A stretch of DNA of 63,879 bases, counting the filler. It is 7 parts of 7 records of this genome, joined end to end, with 100 filler letters (N's around TTAATTAATTAA, not from the genome) between each part and the next. Parts side by side here need not be neighbours in the genome. Positions count along the whole stretch, not along the records: positions 35,670 to 45,272 come from SRR31156797_33800; 6 more parts are not named here. One strand, written 5' to 3'. The notes under the pieces were generated by a model, which ran no database searches, was not told the DNA's origin, and saw nothing but the letters and a program-made list of their open reading frames with translations. Below, one piece after another: positions 35,931 through 46,257 of this stretch. A program made the translations under genes and the position numbers. How positions within the stretch are numbered: position 1 is the stretch's first letter; the number at the start of each line of letters is the position of its first letter.

Positions 35931-36478
35931 TGTTTGCAAAATCAACACATACGCAAGAACTGCAGCATCTCCACCAGCAGGCTTTTGATGTAGCTAACAG
36001 TAAGGAGAAGGGGGTGGTTATTGGTGAGCTTGTAAAAAATTTGCTGGCAGATCCAACAGCCAAACCGTGCCACTCATTGATCGCTGTTGAGCAGGACACC
36101 GTGGTAGGACATTTGTTGTTTACCAGGGTACATATTGAAGGCGCTGAAAGCAATATCGCAGCTCACATCCTTGCACCTCTAGCCGTGCATCCTGATTTTC
36201 AGGCGAAGGGTCTTGGTGGAAAATTGATTATGACCGGTCTGGATGCGCTCCGAAAATCAAAAATACAACTCGTTTTTGTGCTGGGACATCCCGACTATTA
36301 CCCGCGCTACGGCTTTACTCCGGCTGGCGTTTGCGGATTTGAAGCTCCCTACCCAATTCCAGCGGAACATGCATCAGCCTGGATGGTACAGGAACTGGCG
36401 TCCGGTATTATCGGCACCATAAAAGGAAAAATCCGATGCGCCGAAACATTGCACCAGCCTGAACATTGGCGGGAATAA
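35921..36478 (+). CDS. GNAT family N-acetyltransferase (YhbS-like)
   Basis: LAPLAVHPDFQAKGLGGKLI, VLGHPDYYPRYGF. Confidence 0.92.
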   Translation: MEIMFAKSTHTQELQHLHQQAFDVANSKEKGVVIGELVKNLLADPTAKPCHSLIAVEQDTVVGHLLFTRVHIEGAESNIAAHILAPLAVHPDFQAKGLGGKLIMTGLDALRKSKIQLVFVLGHPDYYPRYGFTPAGVCGFEAPYPIPAEHASAWMVQELASGIIGTIKGKIRCAETLHQPEHWRE

Positions 36479-36485
36479 GGGCGTG

Positions 36486-36522
36486 GGCAAACTGCTCAGG
36501 GATTATACCTGAGTAGTTTGCC
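36486..36522 (+). terminator. Hairpin after GNAT gene
   Basis: GGCAAACTGCTCAGG-loop-CCTGAGTAGTTTGCC; no clear U tract. Confidence 0.55.
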
Positions 36523-36535
36523 GTAAAGGATAGAA

Positions 36536-37404
36536 GTAAGCGAGTCACAAAGCCCATCTGCCATATCGCGTGCTAATATGTTTCGTTGAGTCTTTTTAAC
36601 AAAGGAGGCTCAAGTGGAAACACGTACTATCAAGGGTAATATCTCAAAGCAGAATTATTGGGGCAATCATATTTCTTGTTGGAAGAAAAGTGGTCTTACT
36701 CAACGTCAATATGCTTGAGACAAGGGATAGCTATTTCTACATTTTCATATTGGATAAGCAAATTTGGTAAGGGGGCACCAAAGCCAGGTCCAACACGCTT
36801 CTATCAATTGACAGTTAAGGGCGCTTCTGCATCGCCTGCTCAACAAGGCTCCCATACAGGCCGTCTATCTGTTTGCAACGACAAATTCAAAATTGATTTG
36901 GAAGAGGAGTTCTCGAAAGCTGCTCTGAAAAGACTTGTCGCCACCTTGGAGACGATTTGATGCTGAGTATACAAAATAACATCAGAGTCTACATTGCTGT
37001 CGCATAACCGATATGCGTAAATCAATAAACGGTTTGTCGCTCTTGGTTCAGGACGAGTTTGAACTCGATCTCTTCTCCGGAAGCCTCTTCGCTTTCTGTA
37101 ACCGTAGGCAAGAACGCAGGACTGGCTTTTTGCTGGAAACCCCAAAGGGGCTCAGGCGAGTGCTATGATTTACTCCCTTCTTGAATCGGCAAAAGCAAAT
37201 AAGCTTGAACCTTACAATTACCTCCGCGACCTCTTTGAAAATATTCCAGCTGCAGAGACAGAAGAAGATTACAGGAAACTGCTATCGAGCAGCCTCTCTG
37301 TACCAGACTTGAAACCGTCTCCGGAATAAGCAGTGTCTAATTTTAGAGCATTATAGACTCTGCGATTTTGCTTTTGTGTCTGGGGTGGTTCCTGAATCGC
37401 TTAC
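36536..37404 (+). mobile_element. Internally deleted IS66-family element (tnpA, tnpB 5' part, tnpC 3' end; both terminal IRs)
   Basis: Left end GTAAGCGAGTCACAAAGCCC; right end reverse complement GTAAGCGATTCAGGAACCAC. TnpA-like STFSYW; TnpB-like TDMRKSINGL...DLFSGSLFAFCNR; TnpC tail WLFAGNPKGAQASAMIYSLLESAKANKLEPYNYL. Confidence 0.9.
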
Positions 37405-37471
37405 GTCAAGATTCGTCTTCGTACCTCATAAGGAAAAGTATCGTAAAGGGAGTTAACTTTATTTTTCAGCA

Positions 37472-40060
37472 TTACTCCCGTACATCTTTTGCGGGGTTAA
37501 GAAAATCTCTACTCACCTTATCTTGAAAAATTGATACCCGATCAAGCACATTTCTGAGATTCTCTTGCTCTACTTGAGTTAATTCATCTAGTACCAGAAA
37601 GTCATTTACTTTTCTTAGATCGGTGTATTCAATTATCTGGTTCATAAATCGTAAGTTCCAGATATGATCAAATAAATAGGCCATCTCCCGGTAATCTCGT
37701 CGGGAGATATCTCCCCACTGTGTTAATCTCTTCAATCTGGCAACTGTATTAGCTTCTCTAATGTCGTATTTCAGAGCATAGATTCTACAAAAAATTTCCA
37801 TGGGTCTCAGGCATTCTTTCAAATTAACTGAACGCGCTCCATCCTTGACCTCTGTCTTTATCTTACCCATCTTGTTTGTTGGCTGGGTATATGACAGGCA
37901 GTGATGGGCATAGTTGATAAAGAACTGTTCATGTATTCTGCTGGTTTCAAACACATGCTGTTGCAACTCATCAACCAGTTCTGCCATACCATAGGTTGAA
38001 CGAAGGTCGAAAAAAACGTTGGCCTCTAGAATTTTGTCAGGACTGGAGTTGATAATCCAGTTGCTGAAATTTTCCTTCCACTCACCCACAGACAAACACC
38101 ACTGAGGGTTGGTTGCCATGATAAGGCCTTCACAATACGAGTAGCCGGCTTGGTCTAGTCTCTTGCAGACTCGTTCAGCTAAGTGCAGAAAATATCGACG
38201 AACCGTTTCAAGCTCATCCTCCTCACAACTTTCAAAGACCAGGGCATTATCCTGATCAGAGAAAAGAGTCATATCGTGACGAGCGTTTGAACCCATTGAA
38301 ATGAAAGAAAAATGTACAGGCGGTGCACCAATCTCGGCAATAGTAAGGGTAATAAATTTATGTATTGCTGCATCATACGCAGCACCAATCACCCGACGCA
38401 AATTATCAGGCCGAGAGCCGGCATCAATCATAGTTCGGATTACATCCGGCAGCCGATCAAGGGCCTCGACAACGCCCCCCGAGGCTTCACTCTCTTCAAT
38501 AAGATCAACGATCTCACTGTTTATCCCACTATAATGAGTGATCTCCTTTTCAAAGCGGAAAGCACTGCCATACACTTTTCTGGTAATGGGTCGAAATGAG
38601 ACAACATATCCCTTTTTTTTCGAAAGAAATATTTTTGAAATAGAGAGTATGATATCAATTTCCTGTCCACTTTTGGTTTGTAGCTGTGCTTCAAATTCTC
38701 CTGATTCAGTCTCGCCATCGAAGAGGTTTGTACAATGCTGCCGGACAGGTGCGTTGATCGTGTTTTGCGGAAAAATCGTTCTCCAGATAGAATGATCGTG
38801 GAGTTCTTTGTCGCTATACCCTACCATACGTTTTAGTCGTATGTTTGAGTAGATAATAGCCCCCTCGGCTACAAGGAGATACCCCTCGTTGGACGTTTCG
38901 ACCAATGCACGATATCTGTCTTTCGCCTCATGAAGAAGGATTTCCGCCTTTTTCTTTCTCGCCTCTGTCTTATGGCTCTGGTAGATGATATAACTCATGA
39001 CCAGAATGAGCCCGAAGGTAATCGACAGGAAGGTGATATAGAGATTACGCTTAAGTCTGGCAATTTCCTCCGTCACATCATTTACATAAACACCTGTACC
39101 GACAAGCCAGTTCCATTTAGGCACTCCCCGTACATATGAGAGTTTAGGCACTGAGGTGGCACTGTCATCCTTCCATTGCCACTGGTACTCGAGGTAGCCC
39201 TCAGCGTTGTTTTTTACCAACTCGACAAACTCTACAAACAGTTTCTTGCCGCTCTTGTTTTCAGTATCAGTATAGTTGCTTAAATCCGCACCAATCAGCT
39301 CCCCTCGATACGGGTGCATTATCAGGGTCGGGGTCATATCGGTTATGAAAAAATAATCTTTGTTTTTGGCTCCATAACGCATGGAGCCAATTTCTTTGAT
39401 CGCACGACCCTGTGCCTCTTGTACGGATATAAGCCCCTTATCGCTATCGGCAATATACTGTTCGGCAATGGAAACTGCTGAGGCAGTAAGCTCTTTGATC
39501 ATCCTCTTTTTCTGATTCATCATGGAGGACTCAATCTCCGGAACTACGACAAGGATAATTGAGGTAATAAAGAGGATAATTGAAACGACTGTAGGGATAA
39601 CAATTCGTGCCCCGAAACTGCTTATAAAATGATCAGGTCGCCTGTATTCATCATACTCCTTGACCCCTTTGAAGTACTCAGACAGTTCTTGTGGGTCCAG
39701 GATTGTATTCCAGTCATCCTGGTGTAAGGAATCATGATACTTTTCTGTAAACATGCCATTCATAAAATCCTTTCTTGACGGTATGTATCCGTTATAGTCA
39801 TCCCTAACGTGAGTCTCAAAAATTTTGTTAATATCGCTCTTCGAATACCTTTCCCCAAATTCCTGATATGCCTCGTTTAAGGCTTCCTGGCAGTGGCGAA
39901 ATTTACGGTGATCATATGGGTTAGAACTCAGTGTTCTACCGGTGCGTATATAGTGATCGAGTCCGTCATGTTCAAAAAAACCATCCAGCCATTTATGGAT
40001 ATCTGTGCCACGAATTCCGTAGAGTTTCTCTGTGCGGTCTGCATGATCTGATATTTTCAT
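37472..40060 (-). CDS. Membrane signalling protein: His-rich DUF6915-like domain, TM, sCache_2, TM, PAS, DUF294 nucleotidyltransferase and DUF294_C
   Basis: N-terminal H...IHKWLD...HRKFRH...HVRDDY.G.IPS; Cache MRYG..DYFF..MHP..YQW..KLSY..WNWLVGTGVY; PAS YRALVE; NT motif MGSNARHDMTLFSDQDN; GLIMATNPQWC; FFDLR. Confidence 0.85.
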   Translation of the reverse strand: MKISDHADRTEKLYGIRGTDIHKWLDGFFEHDGLDHYIRTGRTLSSNPYDHRKFRHCQEALNEAYQEFGERYSKSDINKIFETHVRDDYNGYIPSRKDFMNGMFTEKYHDSLHQDDWNTILDPQELSEYFKGVKEYDEYRRPDHFISSFGARIVIPTVVSIILFITSIILVVVPEIESSMMNQKKRMIKELTASAVSIAEQYIADSDKGLISVQEAQGRAIKEIGSMRYGAKNKDYFFITDMTPTLIMHPYRGELIGADLSNYTDTENKSGKKLFVEFVELVKNNAEGYLEYQWQWKDDSATSVPKLSYVRGVPKWNWLVGTGVYVNDVTEEIARLKRNLYITFLSITFGLILVMSYIIYQSHKTEARKKKAEILLHEAKDRYRALVETSNEGYLLVAEGAIIYSNIRLKRMVGYSDKELHDHSIWRTIFPQNTINAPVRQHCTNLFDGETESGEFEAQLQTKSGQEIDIILSISKIFLSKKKGYVVSFRPITRKVYGSAFRFEKEITHYSGINSEIVDLIEESEASGGVVEALDRLPDVIRTMIDAGSRPDNLRRVIGAAYDAAIHKFITLTIAEIGAPPVHFSFISMGSNARHDMTLFSDQDNALVFESCEEDELETVRRYFLHLAERVCKRLDQAGYSYCEGLIMATNPQWCLSVGEWKENFSNWIINSSPDKILEANVFFDLRSTYGMAELVDELQQHVFETSRIHEQFFINYAHHCLSYTQPTNKMGKIKTEVKDGARSVNLKECLRPMEIFCRIYALKYDIREANTVARLKRLTQWGDISRRDYREMAYLFDHIWNLRFMNQIIEYTDLRKVNDFLVLDELTQVEQENLRNVLDRVSIFQDKVSRDFLNPAKDVRE

Positions 40061-40208
40061 ATAGTATCAAAGGAGTTGTAGCAGCTTGCTAAGTGTCTGT
40101 ACAGATTTTAGGATGGACACTGCATAGAGTGTAAGGGGAACTACTTACACGGGTATTAACCTATTAATTTTATGAGCCATAAGCTGTAACTGCCAGCGCT
40201 AAAACAAT

Positions 40209-40242
40209 AAAGCCGAAATACCTTTTTTTACGGTATTTCGGC
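40209..40242 (-). terminator. Intrinsic terminator after DUF3360 gene
   Basis: GCCGAAATACC-loop-GGTATTTCGGC followed on the minus strand by TTTATTGTTTT. Confidence 0.7.
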
Positions 40243-40315
40243 GTATTGTACAACCTGGATGTAGTCTTGGATCTTTTGCCTACAGTTAAGGTGCCAGTGA
40301 AAAGTTACGGCAGCA

Positions 40316-41776
40316 TTATGGAGTAATAAGAGCAGGAATGCCTGGTAACTGACCAACTACAGCCAGCGAACCAACACAGACTATGAAGGCAAGGCCGGGG
40401 ATTAACAGTTTATCCTTAAATGAAAGCTTTTTTGTTCGGTCATGATCACCAATCAAGCCAAGGTTGTCAAGAAGCATGGTGGTAGCCCAACCAAACACCG
40501 GATTGACGATGGCACAGGCGAAGATGCAAATCCCCGCACTGAGAGAATCTTTGTACTCCTTTACCATCTGCATGCCGGCTTCAAGAAGTGGCAGGAAAAC
40601 ACCTACGATAAGTGCCACTCGAAGGACAGGTTCCCACATGGCCAGATCCATTGGATAACCGATAACCGCTGTTGAAACACAGAGAAGACCAGTGAGCAGT
40701 GCGCCACCAGGAATAGGTCGTTTAGCAATCGCAGCGGGGATCATATACGTCCCCCATGAGGAAGCGAGGTTGCCGCCACCAAGAAATGACCCTATACCTT
40801 GGCGGATAGATGCCACAGTCATTGTATCATCAACATCCATTAAGACGCCTTTTGCGTCTTTTGGATAGTTGAGTTCTTGAAAGACACGGTGACCAAGGAA
40901 GTCAGGAGACCACATGGCAACAGCTAATAGGGCAAAAGGCGTTACAGCTATGAATTGGCTGAGATTGGGCCAGCCAAGCTTCCAGCCTGTGGTTTCACCC
41001 CACCAGTACAATGGGCTCATGTGAGGAAGACCAGGTGTTGTGGAAAACTGGAAATCAGCGCCAAGCAAAAAGGCCACAACACCAGCCACAATGGAGCAGA
41101 GAGGGATGGCAACCCAGCGAAGTCGCACCTTAGCAAGGTAGGCATAGATAAGCAGGGTTACGCTAATCACTGCAAATGAAATGTACCCTTGATCGGTTGA
41201 AGTAGACCAGTTTTCAAGCTTGTTAATTTGACTGATAAGCCCGACCGCGCCAAGATAAATGAGCAACCCTCCGCGAACGCCTATGCCGGTAAGTGTCATC
41301 AGTTTTGAACCACCTTTGGTGTAGGCCAGCACAAGACCAAATGCTGTCACCATGAGACCAAGAGCTAAGGGATGGCCACCTGCTGCCGCTATAAGTGGGA
41401 TGAGTGGAATCATCGGCCCATGGGTACCGGCCAGGTTGGCATTTGGGGTAAGGACGGCGGAAAAAAGGATAACAAAAACAGCTCCTGCAATAAGCAGTTC
41501 CCAGCGGACATTTTCTGCAACAAAGGCATCGTCTAAACCATACTGGGTTGCAAAAACAGCAACCATGGCGGTAACCATCACAACCTTACCAATTGTAGCT
41601 GCAAGCGCTGGAACCCAGTCTTCAATTTCAATGTTGTAATCGCGTATGGGAAGGTTTAAGCCCCAACGCTTAAAATTCATAATTTTGAGCTCATGATCGA
41701 GGTAATCAGATCTGCTCTCAAATTCAGCTGCCTTCTTGCGCAATTGTTGATAAAACTTTTTTGAATCTTTAGCCAT
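40316..41776 (-). CDS. DUF3360 family multi-pass membrane protein (putative transporter)
   Basis: YLDHELKIM..KRWGLNLP.RDY.IE.EDWVPALAATIGKVVMV, ANLAGTHGP, WSPDFLGHRVFQ, SSWGTY; 12 or more TM. Family recognised from memory. Confidence 0.82.
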   Translation of the reverse strand: MAKDSKKFYQQLRKKAAEFESRSDYLDHELKIMNFKRWGLNLPIRDYNIEIEDWVPALAATIGKVVMVTAMVAVFATQYGLDDAFVAENVRWELLIAGAVFVILFSAVLTPNANLAGTHGPMIPLIPLIAAAGGHPLALGLMVTAFGLVLAYTKGGSKLMTLTGIGVRGGLLIYLGAVGLISQINKLENWSTSTDQGYISFAVISVTLLIYAYLAKVRLRWVAIPLCSIVAGVVAFLLGADFQFSTTPGLPHMSPLYWWGETTGWKLGWPNLSQFIAVTPFALLAVAMWSPDFLGHRVFQELNYPKDAKGVLMDVDDTMTVASIRQGIGSFLGGGNLASSWGTYMIPAAIAKRPIPGGALLTGLLCVSTAVIGYPMDLAMWEPVLRVALIVGVFLPLLEAGMQMVKEYKDSLSAGICIFACAIVNPVFGWATTMLLDNLGLIGDHDRTKKLSFKDKLLIPGLAFIVCVGSLAVVGQLPGIPALITP

Positions 41777-42130
41777 CTAGAATTTTACTCCATGTTGGTA
41801 AGTTTATGAAAGACGGGTCATTCGGATGCATCGAAGGTGTTGGCCATGCTGTGAAAATCTTTGCGGTGTCTTGAATGTAGCTGCTTGCACGGATTGTAAC
41901 GTACTGTCCTCAGGTGCTTCAGGGTCTATCTTCCTGATTTTCGAGTAGGAAGCGTTGAATTAAATGCTTTGGTAATAATGACTTGAAATCTGTTACTCTT
42001 TTTTACCGCTAAGGATGCGAGCAGCAATGGTGCTCGTTACCAAAATGTGCTGATTAGGATCAAATATTATCTGGCTGCCTGCAAGTGCTGACTCCTTGTT
42101 AATCGCCGGAAGTATTTATTGTTAGGGGGA

Positions 42131-42400
42131 ATCTGGGTAGAAGCACTGGCAGCCCAGCGCTCCCCCACAGATCCAGACGTGAAGATTTCCCTCATCCGGT
42201 TCCTTGGAATCCCCAGGCCAGCGTCTGAGAATTACCGGGCAGGTCTAACTCCACCCGGCGCATAACTCAGCTGCCCAGCTGATCAGGTTTGATGCAGTAT
42301 CCTCGGATGAGGTAGCGGGAACTTCTTACAAATCATAAGCTCGTAGTTGTTCCAAGTTATTACGCCCGCCACTACGTCTGCTCAATCAATACCTGAACCT
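42131..42400 (-). mobile_element. Group II intron 3' remnant (maturase C-terminus plus ribozyme domains V and VI)
   Basis: Minus strand encodes LSRRS.../GVITWNNYELMICKKFPLPHPRILHQT* (stop 42283). DV GAACCGGAT-GAGGGAAATCTTC-AC-GTCTGGATC at about 42170-42202. DVI GGGGGAGCGCTGG-GCTG-CCAGTGCTTCT(A)CCC, ending AGAT at 42131. Confidence 0.88.
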
Positions 42401-42827
42401 TGGCCCTCTAGCATAAGCATAACCTCACCCGTTTTTGTGATTCACATATCTTTTGCTTTATTTACATTTTGAACTGCAAAAAAGGTTATTAAACCGAATA
42501 GAATGAATACTAACAGGATGAGACGGAGCATTCGAATTTTTATACTAAGTTTTCCAAGTATTTTTAAGCCACTAGGTTAGCCGCATGGCTCTTGGTGTCT
42601 GCATATACAAGTACGCTCACCACTATCCGTTCTAAAGCATAACTGCTGATTCGAGTAGGCTAGTGCGACACGCGTGCCAGAATGTTAGAAAAGCGGCAAG
42701 TGTATTTATATCAAAATGTTATAGGATTACTTTGAAGATGCGGGCTAAGATATGGCTTGGGCAAATTCTGGAATACAAGACAGAGAGAGCCCAATATTCT
42801 GGATTTCTGGATTGGGTGTATATCTGA

Positions 42828-43059
42828 TTGGCATCTCTGAAACAGACTCACCCCAAATACACATGGCGAGAGTGGTCGATTGTCCCCGCCTACCAGCAAG
42901 CCATGCAGGGTGACTACACATTAGTTAAAGAGTTGCAAGAAGTACTTGGCTGTCCATATGGTGAGCAATCACAAAAAGTCGAAAATAAATACTATCGTCT
43001 AAAAACTAAGTCCTTTTTTTAATAGAGGTGGCGTGTCGCGCTATAGCTGTTCATCTTGA
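42828..43059 (+). pseudogene. selO: SelO/YdiU protein adenylyltransferase C-terminal remnant, frameshifted
   Basis: KQTHPKYTWREW...AYQQAMQGDYTLVKELQEVL..PY, frameshift in a T-run at about 43014-43020, then NRGGVSRYSCSS*, the family's terminal CSS. Confidence 0.82.
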
Positions 43060-43108
43060 CTTTGAATAAAATTTGAAAAATAGGAATGAGGTTTGCTCAG
43101 CTGGGCAC

Positions 43109-43164
43109 GGCTAACAAGTCAATGTTGCCGGACTCGCTAACGTGCCTGATCCGCCACGTTAATG
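43109..43164 (+). other. Degenerate attC-like site
   Basis: GGCTAAC-AAGTCAATG...CTGAT-CCGCCAC-GTTAATG, 56 bp, imperfect pairing. Confidence 0.3.
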
Positions 43165-43491
43165 TTGCAATATCGAAGATCAGAACATCTTACCAGTGGC
43201 TCCATTTTACCTTATTATTGAGAATATAGGGTAATGGTCGCAAACGTGTAACCTAAACCGGATTCATGTTGTGAATCAAAACAGCGCTATTTAATTATCT
43301 CCAACCAGTAGGGATCAGGAGTATAGATTTTTTAGAAAAATTTCTGAACTTAAATTTTGAGCCTCAAATCATGATCTATAGACATGGACTCTCGTCTTGA
43401 TCAAACTTCAATATAGCTATGTTGACTTTGGTAAATAAATGGGTTGGGTGTCTCATTTTTTCTCTCTGTTTTCTAAGGTATAGCTCTCACC

Positions 43492-43821
43492 TCACAGAGA
43501 AATGTTATGCGTTTGATTAGTTGTTAGCCGAATTTGACTTCTATACATTTCTTGGTCACTTCTTAACACAACTATTTCATATGACCCTGCAGTTAGCCCG
43601 CTGATATAGTATCTCCCATCATCTCCTGTAAGCGAACGAGCTACACTCACTCCTCTATTGACCACTTCAACCCATAATGAAGAAGCAGGTCTGTTAGTTG
43701 ATCTCATAACAACCGTGCCAGTGAGATAAAGGGTTGATTGGGCCTTTGGCAGCGGCATATTATACGCAATAAAGCCGATGGATATGATAAGAAATAACCC
43801 TAATGATTTTGATATGTTCAT
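43492..43821 (-). CDS. Small exported carboxypeptidase-regulatory-like (transthyretin-fold) domain protein
   Basis: Signal peptide; LTGTVV...TGDDGRYYISGLTAGSYEI. Confidence 0.75.
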   Translation of the reverse strand: MNISKSLGLFLIISIGFIAYNMPLPKAQSTLYLTGTVVMRSTNRPASSLWVEVVNRGVSVARSLTGDDGRYYISGLTAGSYEIVVLRSDQEMYRSQIRLTTNQTHNISL

Positions 43822-43846
43822 TTGTATTATCCTCAGAGATTTTTAC

Positions 43847-44263
43847 CTACAAATCTTTACACCTTTCGTAGCTCAACAATGATTTTACGACCTCTACCTC
43901 TCCTGAGGACTCGTCTTTTGATATTAACACTCTTGATGCTTTACCCGATGTGATATTTCGAACGATGACCCAATACGATGTGTCCGGTATTTGCTGGAAA
44001 GTGAATCTGCCTTTGTCATCCGTAGTTGCCATGCGCTCACTTCCTGATGCGCGGATCAAGTAAACTTCTGCATTTTGCAGGGGATCATTTTCCCCTGAAG
44101 TAATTTTTCCGTTTATTGTACATTTTTCTGGCTGAAGCTGTGTAGCGTTATCTTTCCTGTCAAGATAAGGAACTATACCAATGAAAGCCACAACGATTGC
44201 AGTGGCAGCTGAAATGAGCGCAGTAATTATTACCACTTTAGGGGATGTACCATTTATTCCCAT
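43847..44263 (-). CDS. Membrane-anchored carboxypeptidase-regulatory-like domain protein
   Basis: N-terminal TM; INGKITS...PLQNAEVYL...TTDDKGRFTFQQIP; ATG 44263 after GGAG. Confidence 0.75.
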   Translation of the reverse strand: MGINGTSPKVVIITALISAATAIVVAFIGIVPYLDRKDNATQLQPEKCTINGKITSGENDPLQNAEVYLIRASGSERMATTDDKGRFTFQQIPDTSYWVIVRNITSGKASRVLISKDESSGEVEVVKSLLSYERCKDL

Positions 44264-44684
44264 ATGATTTACTCCATTTCTTTTGAGGAATCCGAAAATC
44301 AAACGGTTAGAGCAGAACTCTATCACCTAAAACAGACTAGTGAATCAGGTTATGAGATATCACCTTTTGCTAGTATTCCGAACCACCATACTTCCACTTG
44401 GTCAAGACTGATAGGAGGTATCATTACTTCGTTAACGTAGAATTCACAGCCTAGCTTCAGCAAGGCCGGCAGATTGGTTACTTTTGTTAATTCATTTTTT
44501 AATTACACACTACTGTTAGCTTACGAGATTATTATCTATTAAGAAAAAATGACAAAATACCATTGTTATCTTGTATTCAGGATTCTTTCCCCCTACACTT
44601 AATAACGATTATGTAAGTTGTATGTGATCTTATATTGACAAGGTATCAAATCTCTATATTTTCCATCCAAGCGGAGGAAGCGTA

Positions 44685-44996
44685 TTGTTCGGAAGATTGA
44701 AATCAGAAGATAACAAGCTCATGATAGAGGCTGCTGATAGCTTACAACCTCTGATCCAGTCCTGTTACAGGTGGCACGAGACCAAGCAAGCCATGATTAG
44801 TAACAATATCTGCAGCTCTAAAGATGTTCAAAGGATAGAGTGTGGTATCTCTCAATTCGTTGCGATTGAATATATCTCAGAGCTCAAGATTCACGGGAAA
44901 CAAATGAGCCGTAAGAGACTCATAGAGACCATAAATCGAGTCACTGCGGCAGCAGTTAAAGGGCTATCCATCAACCTGCCAATTGTCCATCAATAA
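44685..44996 (+). CDS. Hypothetical protein or fragment
   Basis: GGAGG upstream of a TTG start; no family recognised. Confidence 0.3.
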   Translation: MFGRLKSEDNKLMIEAADSLQPLIQSCYRWHETKQAMISNNICSSKDVQRIECGISQFVAIEYISELKIHGKQMSRKRLIETINRVTAAAVKGLSINLPIVHQ

Positions 44997-45272
44997 TAGG
45001 TGTAGCAGCCCGCAGGGATAAACCCCCGGCCCCACATCTATTGTATCGTGATTTCAATAACTCGCACCTAAAGTAATTTTTGTTTTAAAGGAGCGGTGGA
45101 TGACTAAAAAGAACGGTATCTATATCCCTTATCCAATTATGGGGTTCAAAAGGAAAAATGACAGGAACTTGCTAATAGCTTGGAACATGTTGCAAGATTC
45201 GTTACGTTCGATGTGGCAATGTTAAGTTTCAATCTCAGTTACTTGTTTTGCTTCAGTTGGAAACGGAAAAAT

Positions 45273-45372
45273 NNNNNNNNNNNNNNNNNNNNNNNNNNNN
45301 NNNNNNNNNNNNNNNNTTAATTAATTAANNNNNNNNNNNNNNNNNNNNNNNNNNNNNNNNNNNNNNNNNNNN
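45273..45372. other. Artificial contig spacer
   Basis: N-run plus TTAATTAATTAA. Confidence 0.99.
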
Positions 45373-45998
45373 TTAAGCATATGCTAACACGCTTGTTTTA
45401 GGGCTAAAGGTTACGTCTTCATCGCTTTTATTCTTCGAAGCGGTTGCTATTGCCGTTACCATGCATATGGAGAAGATTGACAGCATTCCGTGTACCGGCA
45501 TCTGTAATTCGATGTTTCCCAGAAGTTTGTAACAATACGCTAAAAGGATTGGTAGCAATTGGGGATAAGGCGCTTGGGTGTAATGGTAATCAATTGGGAC
45601 ATTATTAAATTGTTGAATTGCCCACATGTTCCAACTGTATATTTCGTCATTGGAACAAAAAGACTGGACCCCCATCTCTACAACAAAGGGTACCATTATT
45701 AATAAAGAGAATAGAAAAATATAAATCGATTTTTTCGGCCATGATAATTGATTCGTTTTTAAAAATGAAATTATTCTAATTGCCGAAATGACAATAAACG
45801 TTGCGGAAATGGTAACAACCGATACATGGGAAAAAAGACCGAAATATTGGAGCACCTTGGTGATGAAGGTGATAATTAAGTACTGACAATGGGAATTGTA
45901 ATTACCAATCCGGGTGATGAAATGAGCCTTGGAAACAGGGACAATGCAGGGACCGAATAGACACAAATGAATAAGGCTGAGTAATAGAATAGATACAT
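45373..45998 (-). pseudogene. Multi-TM membrane protein, apparently frameshifted and truncated (possible GT-C-like N-terminus)
   Basis: ATG 45998 gives hydrophobic MYLFYYSALFICVYSVPALSLFP...IVST*. Hydrophobic sequence continues in another frame with NDEIYSWNMWA and YPQLLP. Confidence 0.4.
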
Positions 45999-46257
45999 TT
46001 TTTTATAATTCCTACATTCTTAAAAAGATGATTGAACCATTTATTCAAGACTTTGTCGAATACCACAACACGAAGGGGTATGAAAGGAAAATATCATTGT
46101 GCTAAACAAGTTTCAAATAGGCTGATATTTTTCTGATCGCTCCATGAGCGACCGCTGTCCAGCCTGTTAAAAATCAGGCGGAGAATTGCGGTTTTTTGCA
46201 ACAAATTGTTATTTTAATGATTTTATGATATCTATGCCCGGTTGATTTTAAGAGTTT

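Follow-up and report, generated by a model that had tools for sequence, protein, structure and literature searches.

A gene on the minus strand of the 63.9-kb stretch of DNA analysed here (positions 37472..40060) codes for a protein of 862 amino acids (aa) which, as judged from its sequence, is a one-component transmembrane receptor enzyme: a sensor domain of the sCache_2 type, predicted to lie outside the cytoplasm, is joined in one polypeptide to a nucleotidyltransferase module composed of the domains DUF294 and DUF294_C. The protein, in the following referred to as the receptor, thus represents by its predicted domains an intact membrane-receptor variant of the DUF294 signalling nucleotidyltransferases. 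Its ligand pocket and catalytic residues are conserved, its catalytic module shares the fold of protein AMPylases, and its gene is linked to that of a putative anion transporter of the family DUF3360. DUF294 enzymes have long been predicted to be signalling nucleotidyltransferases (according to the classification cited in PMC5715377) and are described as part of acetate/short-chain-acid regulons for the Pseudomonas and Vibrio strains covered by the respective reports (PMC5715377, PMC9927547, bioRxiv 10.64898/2026.09.07.749794). The term window denotes the whole 63.9-kb stretch, along which all positions are counted.

Domain architecture of the receptor

The open reading frame (ORF) at 37472..40060 extends over 862 aa without internal stop, and its start codon appears to be right because homologs align from Met1. 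Pfam searches and hydropathy resolved the order DUF6915-TM-sCache_2-TM-PAS-DUF294-DUF294_C (TM, transmembrane helix), with all parts encoded on the minus strand. A cytoplasmic, His/Asp-rich helical DUF6915-like domain (residues 1-140; 39641..40060; PF21866, 26.0 bits) is followed by TM1 (residues 153-174; 39539..39604), the predicted periplasmic sCache_2 domain with a pocket of the C2/C3-carboxylate type (residues 175-338; 39047..39538; Pfam as well as sequence and fold matches in PDB), TM2 (residues 340-362; 38975..39043), a cytoplasmic PAS domain (residues 382-493; 38582..38917; PAS_9, TIGR00229), the DUF294 nucleotidyltransferase domain of the polymerase-beta (pol-beta) type (residues 536-674; 38039..38455) and the helical DUF294_C 'substrate-binding' domain (residues 712-853; 37502..37927). 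The Pfam matches themselves span residues 180-335 for sCache_2 (PF17200; expectation value (E) 9e-33), 175-350 for dCache_2, 392-493 for PAS_9 (E 5e-9), 536-674 for DUF294 (E 5e-44) and 712-853 for DUF294_C (E 8e-29). The PAS assignment is joined by a match to TIGR00229 (E 2e-14) and by structural matches to PAS/LOV structures (Z score 11-12.5).

Exactly two hydrophobic segments (residues 145-181 and 339-362) were detected in the hydropathy scan, and in the AlphaFold2 (AF2) model of the receptor (mean predicted local distance difference test (pLDDT) score of 77.7) a long helix (residues 148-207) runs from TM1 into the Cache domain. Basic residues precede TM1, and a basic stretch (HKTEARKKK) follows TM2. 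This pattern suggests a topology in which sCache_2 is extracytoplasmic between the two transmembrane helices.

HisKA, HATPase, GGDEF, EAL, cyclase and MCPsignal domains were not found by Pfam at E<=1. At the same threshold, neither cNMP_binding nor CBS domains were detected, and DUF6915, TM, sCache_2, TM and PAS stand in their place; a nucleic-acid-binding domain was likewise not found by Pfam. Matches to NCBIfam models, including MctS (monocarboxylate sensor kinase), CtpM (chemoreceptor) and others, cover Cache or PAS parts only and are far below the cut-offs.

A preliminary description of this DNA had located the feature correctly and had listed TM1, sCache_2, TM2, PAS, DUF294 and DUF294_C in the order recovered here by Pfam and hydropathy, with a TM1 (I153-P174) that falls inside the hydrophobic segment 145-181 and with no kinase, cyclase or methyl-accepting chemotaxis protein (MCP) output, as borne out by the Pfam searches. 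It omitted the conserved N-terminal DUF6915-like domain of 150 aa, and it was silent on the DUF3360 neighbour and on the large database family to which the receptor belongs. Its remark that a receptor-nucleotidyltransferase signalling mode was not known to have been characterised agrees with the literature search, in which no published study describing the sCache_2-PAS-DUF294 family was found.

Catalytic module

Conservation was assessed in 57 aligned full-length homologs sharing 47-76% overall identity. The catalytic motif G590-S591-x10-D602-Q603-D604 (38249..38293, minus strand) lies within MGSNARHDMTLFSDQDN (residues 589-605), and G590, S591, D602 and D604 as well as the third acidic residue D685 are invariant in all 57 sequences, in line with the earlier view that the pol-beta motif is intact. 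Three basic residues of DUF294_C (K748, R759 and R775) are also invariant. The G-x11-D-x-D spacing read in the receptor sequence corresponds to the signature of protein nucleotidyltransferases such as GlnE and DrrA.

For structural comparison, the AF2 model of the receptor was aligned (VIA-align) to 48,161 PDB representatives, and the best 50 rows were considered. DUF294 plus DUF294_C matched the N-terminal domain of GlnE (1v4a) with a Z score of 27.2 over 346 aligned residues (root mean square deviation (rmsd) 4.1, 12% identity), DrrA (6yx5_B) with a Z score of 25.6 over 310 residues, and the adenylylation domain of GlnE (3k7d) with a Z score of 25.5. The top three rows are therefore all protein AMPylases, well above the next unrelated rows. 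A Foldseek search was concordant (E 4e-9 to 2e-7 for the GlnE/DrrA matches), and CCA-adding enzyme, poly(A) polymerase and CD-NTase were absent from the best 50 structural rows. At the level of the modelled fold, these matches argue for protein nucleotidylylation by the DUF294 module.

Sensor domain and predicted ligand

In sequence searches, the Cache domain of the receptor matched Adeh_3718 (4k08; E 4e-26) and PscD (5g4y/5g4z; E 5e-23); its modelled fold superimposes on 4k08 with a TM-score of 0.94 and an rmsd of 1.0 (Foldseek; Z score of 23.1 in VIA-align). According to the parts of PMC5062169 dealing with the ligand pocket, Tyr90, His103, Tyr143 and Lys156 of PscD are the hydrogen-bond partners of the carboxylate, Trp92, Trp145 and Phe126 wall the pocket, and all seven contacts are identical in the C2/C3-carboxylate binders PscD, McpP and Adeh_3718. 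By HMMER alignment, the seven PscD contacts map to Y236, F238, H249, F275, Y292, W294 and K306 of the receptor. Six of these (Y236, H249, F275, Y292, W294 and K306) are identical to PscD and occur in 57/57 homologs. The motifs DYFF, MHP, EYQW and PKLSY, for which a role in carboxylate binding had previously been considered plausible, contain Y236, H249, Y292 and K306, and these align with Tyr90, His103, Tyr143 and Lys156 of PscD, respectively.

Since six of the seven PscD contacts are identical and invariant, the ligand class best supported for the predicted sensor is that of small monocarboxylates such as acetate, propionate, glycolate or pyruvate. It appears distinctly improbable that the Cache domain binds a ligand other than a short-chain carboxylate or that the PAS domain carries the relevant input. 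Such an exception would find a precedent in TlpB, the sCache_2 domain of which binds urea despite the conserved Tyr (as reported in the section of PMC5062169 on this protein), and the seventh contact also speaks for caution, residue 238 (Trp92 in PscD) being Phe in the receptor and in 27/57 homologs and Trp in 30/57. The six contacts shared with PscD, Adeh_3718 and McpP, however, count in favour of a carboxylate, as do the ActP-like and SatP-like genes in the genomic context described below.

N-terminal DUF6915-like domain

Residues 1-150, preceding TM1, form a conserved domain that is helical by AF2 secondary structure. With 26.0 bits, the match to the DUF6915 model (PF21866) falls short of the cut-off of 27; a precomputed match to this model is present in 6 of the 120 receptor homologs listed. 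Twelve residues (H6, H22, D26, H51, R52, H56, C57, E59, H84, D87, D88 and H109) are invariant in the 57 homologs. From 1.84 billion representatives, a profile of the domain built on 21 sequences retrieved 86 proteins at E<=1e-3, 29 of them at E<=1e-30 (best to 6e-36). Receptor-type proteins of 835-1077 aa are among them, as are stand-alone ones of 106-120 aa; H6, H22, D26, R52, H56, H84 and D88 are kept in the alignment with 17 stand-alone short proteins.

Searched against PDB sequences, the DUF6915 profile yielded chance-level rows only (best E 0.22, SAP30), and in the structure search the rows obtained with the full-length model were filled by Cache, PAS and nucleotidyltransferase matches and barely cover residues 1-150. 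In PHROGs, the domain matches only phrog_8143, the function of which is not annotated. The nearest ESM Atlas clusters are DUF6915 (score 0.83), which is taken as a lead only. No paper mentioning DUF6915 was found, and no stand-alone DUF6915 gene lies beside the N-terminally bare receptor paralogs in the loci examined. Stand-alone DUF6915-like genes are frequent on phage contigs (83 confirmed, 80 kept as viral_contigs loci L126-L205), and the phage copies keep the pattern H...HxxxD...HR...H...H...D.

Distribution and relatives of the receptor

The family was searched for among 5.8 billion cluster representatives, and 8000 candidates were scored, 753 of which are receptor homologs at E<=1e-3. 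All 120 homologs listed (42-77% identity, 845-1016 aa) contain sCache_2, DUF294 and DUF294_C; they originate from Vibrio, Aliivibrio, Agarivorans, Corallincola, Fibrobacterales, Cloacimonadota, Kiritimatiellaceae, Verrucomicrobiaceae, Phycisphaerae and Desulfobacter. None of these 120 bears a functional name, the annotation reading only "DUF294 domain-containing". With so many homologs and none of those listed functionally named, the sCache_2-DUF294 architecture is a large, established but unstudied database family spread across several phyla and not a one-off fusion.

Variation among the relatives concerns the N-terminus and the neighbouring genes. The three Spirochaetia relatives scanned (loci L030, L031 and L034) have the architecture PHP-TM-sCache_2-TM-PAS-CBS-DUF294-DUF294_C, the PHP phosphoesterase domain sitting exactly at the position of DUF6915. 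Downstream, an AP_endonuc_2 gene is found in L030 and a gene for a protein of the metallo-beta-lactamase fold (Lactamase_B_3) in L031, the same gene being present in L034 by BLAST clustering. A Phycisphaerae relative lacks the N-terminal domain and has an AP_endonuc_2 neighbour. In one receptor-carrying Vibrio genome, each of the three soluble cNMP-CBS-DUF294 genes is immediately followed by an RNase_T-family gene, and one of these three pairs also adjoins the gene for acetyl-CoA synthetase. With three Vibrio RNase_T queries (tblastn, E<=1e-3), neither the window nor any of 118 Cache-type/DUF3360 loci yielded an RNase_T homolog. Four metagenome loci (L094, L097, L099 and L103) harbour one DUF3360 gene amid up to three Cache-DUF294 genes; one of the latter is of the DUF6915 type, the others encode N-terminally bare proteins of 830 aa (sCache_2-PAS-CBS-DUF294-DUF294_C), and a gene for a universal stress protein (Usp) lies between transporter and receptor.

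Linkage to a DUF3360 transporter gene

Upstream of the receptor gene, and likewise on the minus strand, lies a gene for a 486-aa DUF3360 protein (40316..41776; PF11840, E 7e-256), a putative anion transporter. A search with the receptor yielded 38 genome loci, 30 of which have a DUF3360 gene (75-83% identity) as immediate neighbour; the remaining eight are a 5-kb contig with too little flank, five distant variants and two Cache-only matches. For homologs of the DUF6915 type with enough flank, adjacency thus amounts to 30/30 genome loci. Receptor and DUF3360 genes have a divergent arrangement in these 30 but run co-directionally in the window. In a sample of 151 Vibrionaceae genomes, DUF3360 was detected in 107 and the receptor (E<=1e-150) in 8, and in each of these eight, 364-371 bp separate the receptor from a DUF3360 match on its contig.

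DUF3360 proteins are extremely conserved, with 72-82% identity across phyla, and Tyr9 in their N-terminal segment of 50 residues is invariant. In a quick FastTree phylogeny of 108 DUF3360 sequences, 41 of the 46 linked copies fall into one supported set of 53 rows, to which the copies from Vibrio, Fibrobacterales and the window belong. Five linked copies are placed outside this set, and the tree demands at least 5 changes between linked and unlinked states.

No PDB sequence match to DUF3360 was obtained at E<=10 and no NCBIfam match except a chance-level one to UsfY (E 2), and no published study on the family was found. The AF2 model (pLDDT 74, predicted TM-score (pTM) 0.77) matched the NAT transporter 7tak in Foldseek (E 6e-8; TM-scores 0.60/0.64), as well as UraA, SLC26Dg, AE1 and prestin (E 6e-5 to 2e-4); AE2 was also matched. 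The nearest clusters in the ESM Atlas, those of xanthine/uracil permease-like, BenE and MOT1 proteins, again serve as no more than a lead. Because the model matches the folds of NAT, UraA, SLC26 and AE1/AE2 proteins, DUF3360 is considered a putative elevator-type anion transporter with the 7+7 UraA/SLC26/SLC4 fold. In seven loci with a receptor-less DUF3360 gene (L060, L085, L086, L113, L114, L116 and L118), a gene for an ACT-domain (ACT_6) protein of 173 aa is located directly beside it; this protein may be an alternative regulator of the DUF3360 transporter.

Carboxylate-related gene context

A gene for an SSF-family symporter adjoins the receptor gene, or that of a distantly related version, in two Fibrobacterales loci (L001, L005) and four Spirochaetia loci (L030, L031, L033, L034); in 5 of these 6 loci the symporter is paired with a DUF485 protein in the YjcH/ActP arrangement. 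Four other DUF3360 loci have a GPR1/FUN34/YaaH (SatP-type) gene next door. The proximity of DUF294 to acetate-permease genes invoked in the preliminary description is documented in the literature for soluble forms, and among Cache-type proteins it is the distant relatives that adjoin DUF485 and SSF genes.

The acetate/short-chain-acid regulon of CrbS/R (MxtR/ErdR) comprises the soluble cNMP-CBS-DUF294 proteins along with acs and actP (in the relevant sections of PMC5715377, PMC9927547 and bioRxiv 10.64898/2026.09.07.749794); the function of these soluble proteins was still called unknown in the corresponding section of the preprint of September 2026 (bioRxiv 10.64898/2026.09.07.749794). For P. 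putida/alloputida, PP_0353 is described there and in the pertinent part of PMC9927547 as RNase T-like. Price et al. report, in their passage on this gene, that a 'COG2905 (RNase T domain protein)' gene is cofit with the neighbouring lactate/D-alanine symporter gene in two species (bioRxiv 10.1101/072470).

Proposed mode of action and alternatives

Taken together, a working model can be formulated in which the receptor would be a carboxylate-gated, GlnE-like nucleotidyltransferase acting on protein, with DUF6915 opposing or gating it and the adjacent transporter under its control; we give this model an even chance of being correct. Initially, the periplasmic sCache_2 domain would bind a small monocarboxylate similar to acetate, propionate, glycolate or pyruvate. 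The signal would then pass via TM2 and the PAS domain to the GlnE/DrrA-like module of DUF294 and DUF294_C, which would transfer a nucleoside monophosphate, most likely onto a protein side chain. The cytoplasmic DUF6915 domain may serve as the counter-acting or controlling partner ('eraser'), in place of which relatives have a fused PHP domain or an encoded RNase T-like exonuclease. A metal-dependent eraser is proposed because the domain occupies the slot of the hydrolytic partner in relatives and displays an invariant His/Asp/Glu set. The output would be control of carboxylate transport, and the prime candidate target is the adjacent DUF3360 protein, which may be regulated in activity or abundance. 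In this model we infer which class of ligand is bound, that transfer is to a protein, that DUF6915 acts as eraser, and what the target is.

Besides the exchange at residue 238, several observations weigh against this model. No biochemical data on DUF294 proteins were found in the literature, and for DUF6915, the eraser role of which derives from position and conserved His/Asp residues, no solved or annotated relative was found. The linkage to the transporter gene is one-sided: among the DUF3360 loci from metagenomes (80 in total), a receptor gene occurs within 3.5 kb in 15 and 22 are clearly unlinked (at least 3.5 kb covered on both sides), 40 being too short to tell and 3 matches too short to class. 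Since most DUF3360 genes have no receptor neighbour, the transporter works without the receptor. In the window, the two genes are moreover separated by a hairpin and a U-rich tail following it, located after the DUF3360 stop and ahead of the receptor start (40200..40249, minus strand; stem of 11 bp + 6 bp; dG -21.7 kcal/mol, z -6.5, 0/200 shuffles fold as well). The hairpin is likely an intrinsic terminator, was not reported by the terminator-consensus scan, and a separate promoter is probable for the receptor gene. For the soluble relatives, deletions of PP_0354 and PP_0353 are stated to cause weak phenotypes or none (in the sections on these mutants in PMC9927547 and bioRxiv 10.64898/2026.09.07.749794), and the speculation of Price et al. 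in the same passage concerns a requirement of the COG2905 gene for symporter expression and not modification of the symporter; their label 'COG2905 (RNase T domain protein)' fits either gene of the pair (bioRxiv 10.1101/072470). Finally, the partners of the relatives (RNase T, PHP, AP_endonuc_2, metallo-beta-lactamase fold) belong to enzyme classes often acting on nucleic acids, which would suit a substrate of nucleotide or RNA nature no less than a protein-NMP bond.

This last point keeps alive a model in which DUF294 would produce a nucleotide-based molecule (second messenger, oligonucleotide or RNA 3' tail), DUF6915 would remove it as a nuclease or phosphodiesterase, a part that RNase T and PHP would play in relatives, and sensing would control expression of the transporter; we consider it unlikely, while granting it a real share of the probability. 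The breadth of the pol-beta superfamily, which includes tailing enzymes and cyclic-nucleotide synthases, is compatible with such a product. The same holds for the RNase_T genes after all three soluble genes of the Vibrio genome, the PHP domain fused in L030, L031 and L034, and the AP_endonuc_2 or Lactamase_B_3 genes downstream, to which the RNase T-like nature of PP_0353 (PMC9927547, bioRxiv 10.64898/2026.09.07.749794, in the parts cited above) and the role in symporter expression proposed by Price et al. (bioRxiv 10.1101/072470, passage cited above) may be added. Against it stand the structural matches, the best of which over 310-346 residues are protein AMPylases, the lack of a nucleic-acid-binding domain in the receptor by Pfam, and the fact that no messenger receptor is evident in the loci. 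A more specific form, which we regard as improbable, assumes that upon carboxylate binding DUF294 acts as a template-independent nucleotide polymerase generating a short nucleotide or oligonucleotide signal or an RNA tail, and that DUF6915 is a new metal-dependent nuclease or phosphodiesterase erasing it. If true, this would amount to a new receptor-gated nucleotide signalling system governing carboxylate transporters in many bacterial phyla.

More doubtful still is an action of the nucleotidyltransferase on an enzyme of acetate use (e.g., acetyl-CoA synthetase), comparable to that of GlnE on glutamine synthetase, in which case linkage to DUF3360 would merely reflect a shared substrate. The GlnE-like fold, the soluble paralog operon adjoining acetyl-CoA synthetase and the co-regulation of soluble relatives with acs and actP (as given in the regulon section of PMC5715377) would fit this explanation; beside the Cache-type genes, however, no acs or other acetate-metabolism gene is conserved, and the transporter is the only conserved neighbour. 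That DUF294 is a nucleotide-binding regulatory domain devoid of physiological transfer, the receptor modulating the transporter by contact as co-sensor or scaffold, would agree with the strict adjacency of the receptor gene to one DUF3360 clade and with the sensor-transporter complexes known in other systems, but is very improbable in view of G590, S591, D602, D604 and D685 being present in 57/57 homologs across phyla, residues which pseudo-enzymes usually lose.

Regulatory and mobile DNA elements

The core of the CrbR ACTU-box ([G/T]AC-N4-GTC) was found in none of 30 DUF3360-receptor intergenic regions and was absent from the two window regions tested; control of the receptor/DUF3360 pair by CrbR is accordingly without support. 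Near the window genes, Rfam searches revealed nothing except a piece of a group II intron, and nothing was detected at E<=1 in four related loci. The intron match (domain V/VI, RF00029; 42131-42204, minus strand; 41.1 bits, gathering score 40; E 2e-5) is located ~350 nt upstream of the DUF3360 gene and looks ORF-less or like a remnant, because the surrounding 1.7 kb contain no ORF of at least 95 aa. Positions 36000-46000 of the window have a G+C fraction of 0.37-0.46, compared to roughly 0.46-0.55 in the flanking bins, and the DUF3360 protein of the window is 82-83% identical to Vibrio copies. Low G+C content and this identity suggest that the transporter-receptor pair was acquired horizontally, which the intron match fits. 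The low-G+C stretch also harbours two small tandem genes (43492-44326, minus strand) for proteins with CarboxypepD_reg-like (transthyretin-like) domains and N-terminal hydrophobic segments.

In the Vibrio clade, the leader of DUF3360 genes contains a conserved element of ~106 nt, ~50 nt upstream of the start codon, within an otherwise variable intergenic region of ~365 bp (L002:6681-6785, minus strand; equivalent in 22 other Vibrio-clade loci, e.g., L041:5848-5952, plus strand). It comprises a near-invariant core (GGUAGCGUCUGGGAUGUCG), a hairpin with compensatory changes (both sides altered in 4/9 pairs) and a GNRA-closed mini-hairpin, and has no Rfam match at E<=1. Of 66 sources searched with a covariance model, 19 contain the element, in each case shortly before a DUF3360 gene of the Vibrio clade, including receptor-less copies; neither the window nor Fibrobacterales nor L039 yielded a match to this model. 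The element is a candidate cis-regulatory leader or riboswitch.

Significance and relation to known systems

The architecture of the receptor is not unique but a membrane variant of the uncharacterised DUF294 enzymes. Interest in the receptor arises from its making the old open question of DUF294 function testable: the membrane form provides three handles, namely a predictable and cheap ligand of the acetate class, with which the enzyme might be switched on in vitro, a single conserved transporter neighbour as candidate target, and a fused candidate eraser. Identifying what is transferred onto what would establish a new output class for bacterial transmembrane receptors and at the same time provide functions for DUF294, DUF3360 and DUF6915.

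With respect to the output, GlnE and GlnD are the systems for comparison; they combine a signal-controlled writer and an opposing activity in one polypeptide. They share with the receptor the fold of nucleotidyltransferase plus helical domain, the catalytic Asp pair and the G-x11-D-x-D spacing. GlnE and GlnD are soluble, however, and sense glutamine/PII, whereas the receptor is membrane-bound and carries a Cache sensor; the eraser is a second nucleotidyltransferase domain in GlnE and an HD domain in GlnD, and its candidate counterpart in the receptor is DUF6915. The AMPylation domain of DrrA/SidM from Legionella is close in fold (Z score of 25.6 over 310 residues; Foldseek E 4e-9) at 11-13% identity to the receptor, but DrrA is secreted as an effector, has a Rab GTPase of the host as its target and lacks sensor domains.

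On the sensory side, PscD of P. syringae, Adeh_3718 and McpP share the sensor fold, the TM-Cache-TM topology and 6 of the 7 ligand contacts with the receptor; their output consists of HAMP and an MCP signalling domain directed to chemotaxis, in contrast to the PAS domain and nucleotidyltransferase of the receptor. The soluble COG2905-type proteins (Pflu5625 of P. fluorescens; PP_0354/PP_0353 of P. putida/alloputida) have the same DUF294 and DUF294_C domains and the same link to short-chain carboxylates, but possess a cytoplasmic cNMP_binding-CBS-CBS input instead of the extracytoplasmic sCache_2 and PAS, and are accompanied by an adjacent RNase T-like exonuclease and actP/acs neighbours, whereas the receptor has the fused DUF6915 and the DUF3360 neighbour. 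CrbS/MxtR (SLC5-STAC-histidine kinase), which controls genes of the actP/acs type, is a membrane sensor tied to acetate and short-chain acids, as is predicted for the receptor; in CrbS, however, sensing is by a transporter-like domain and the signal reaches CrbR by phosphotransfer, while the receptor has no kinase domain.

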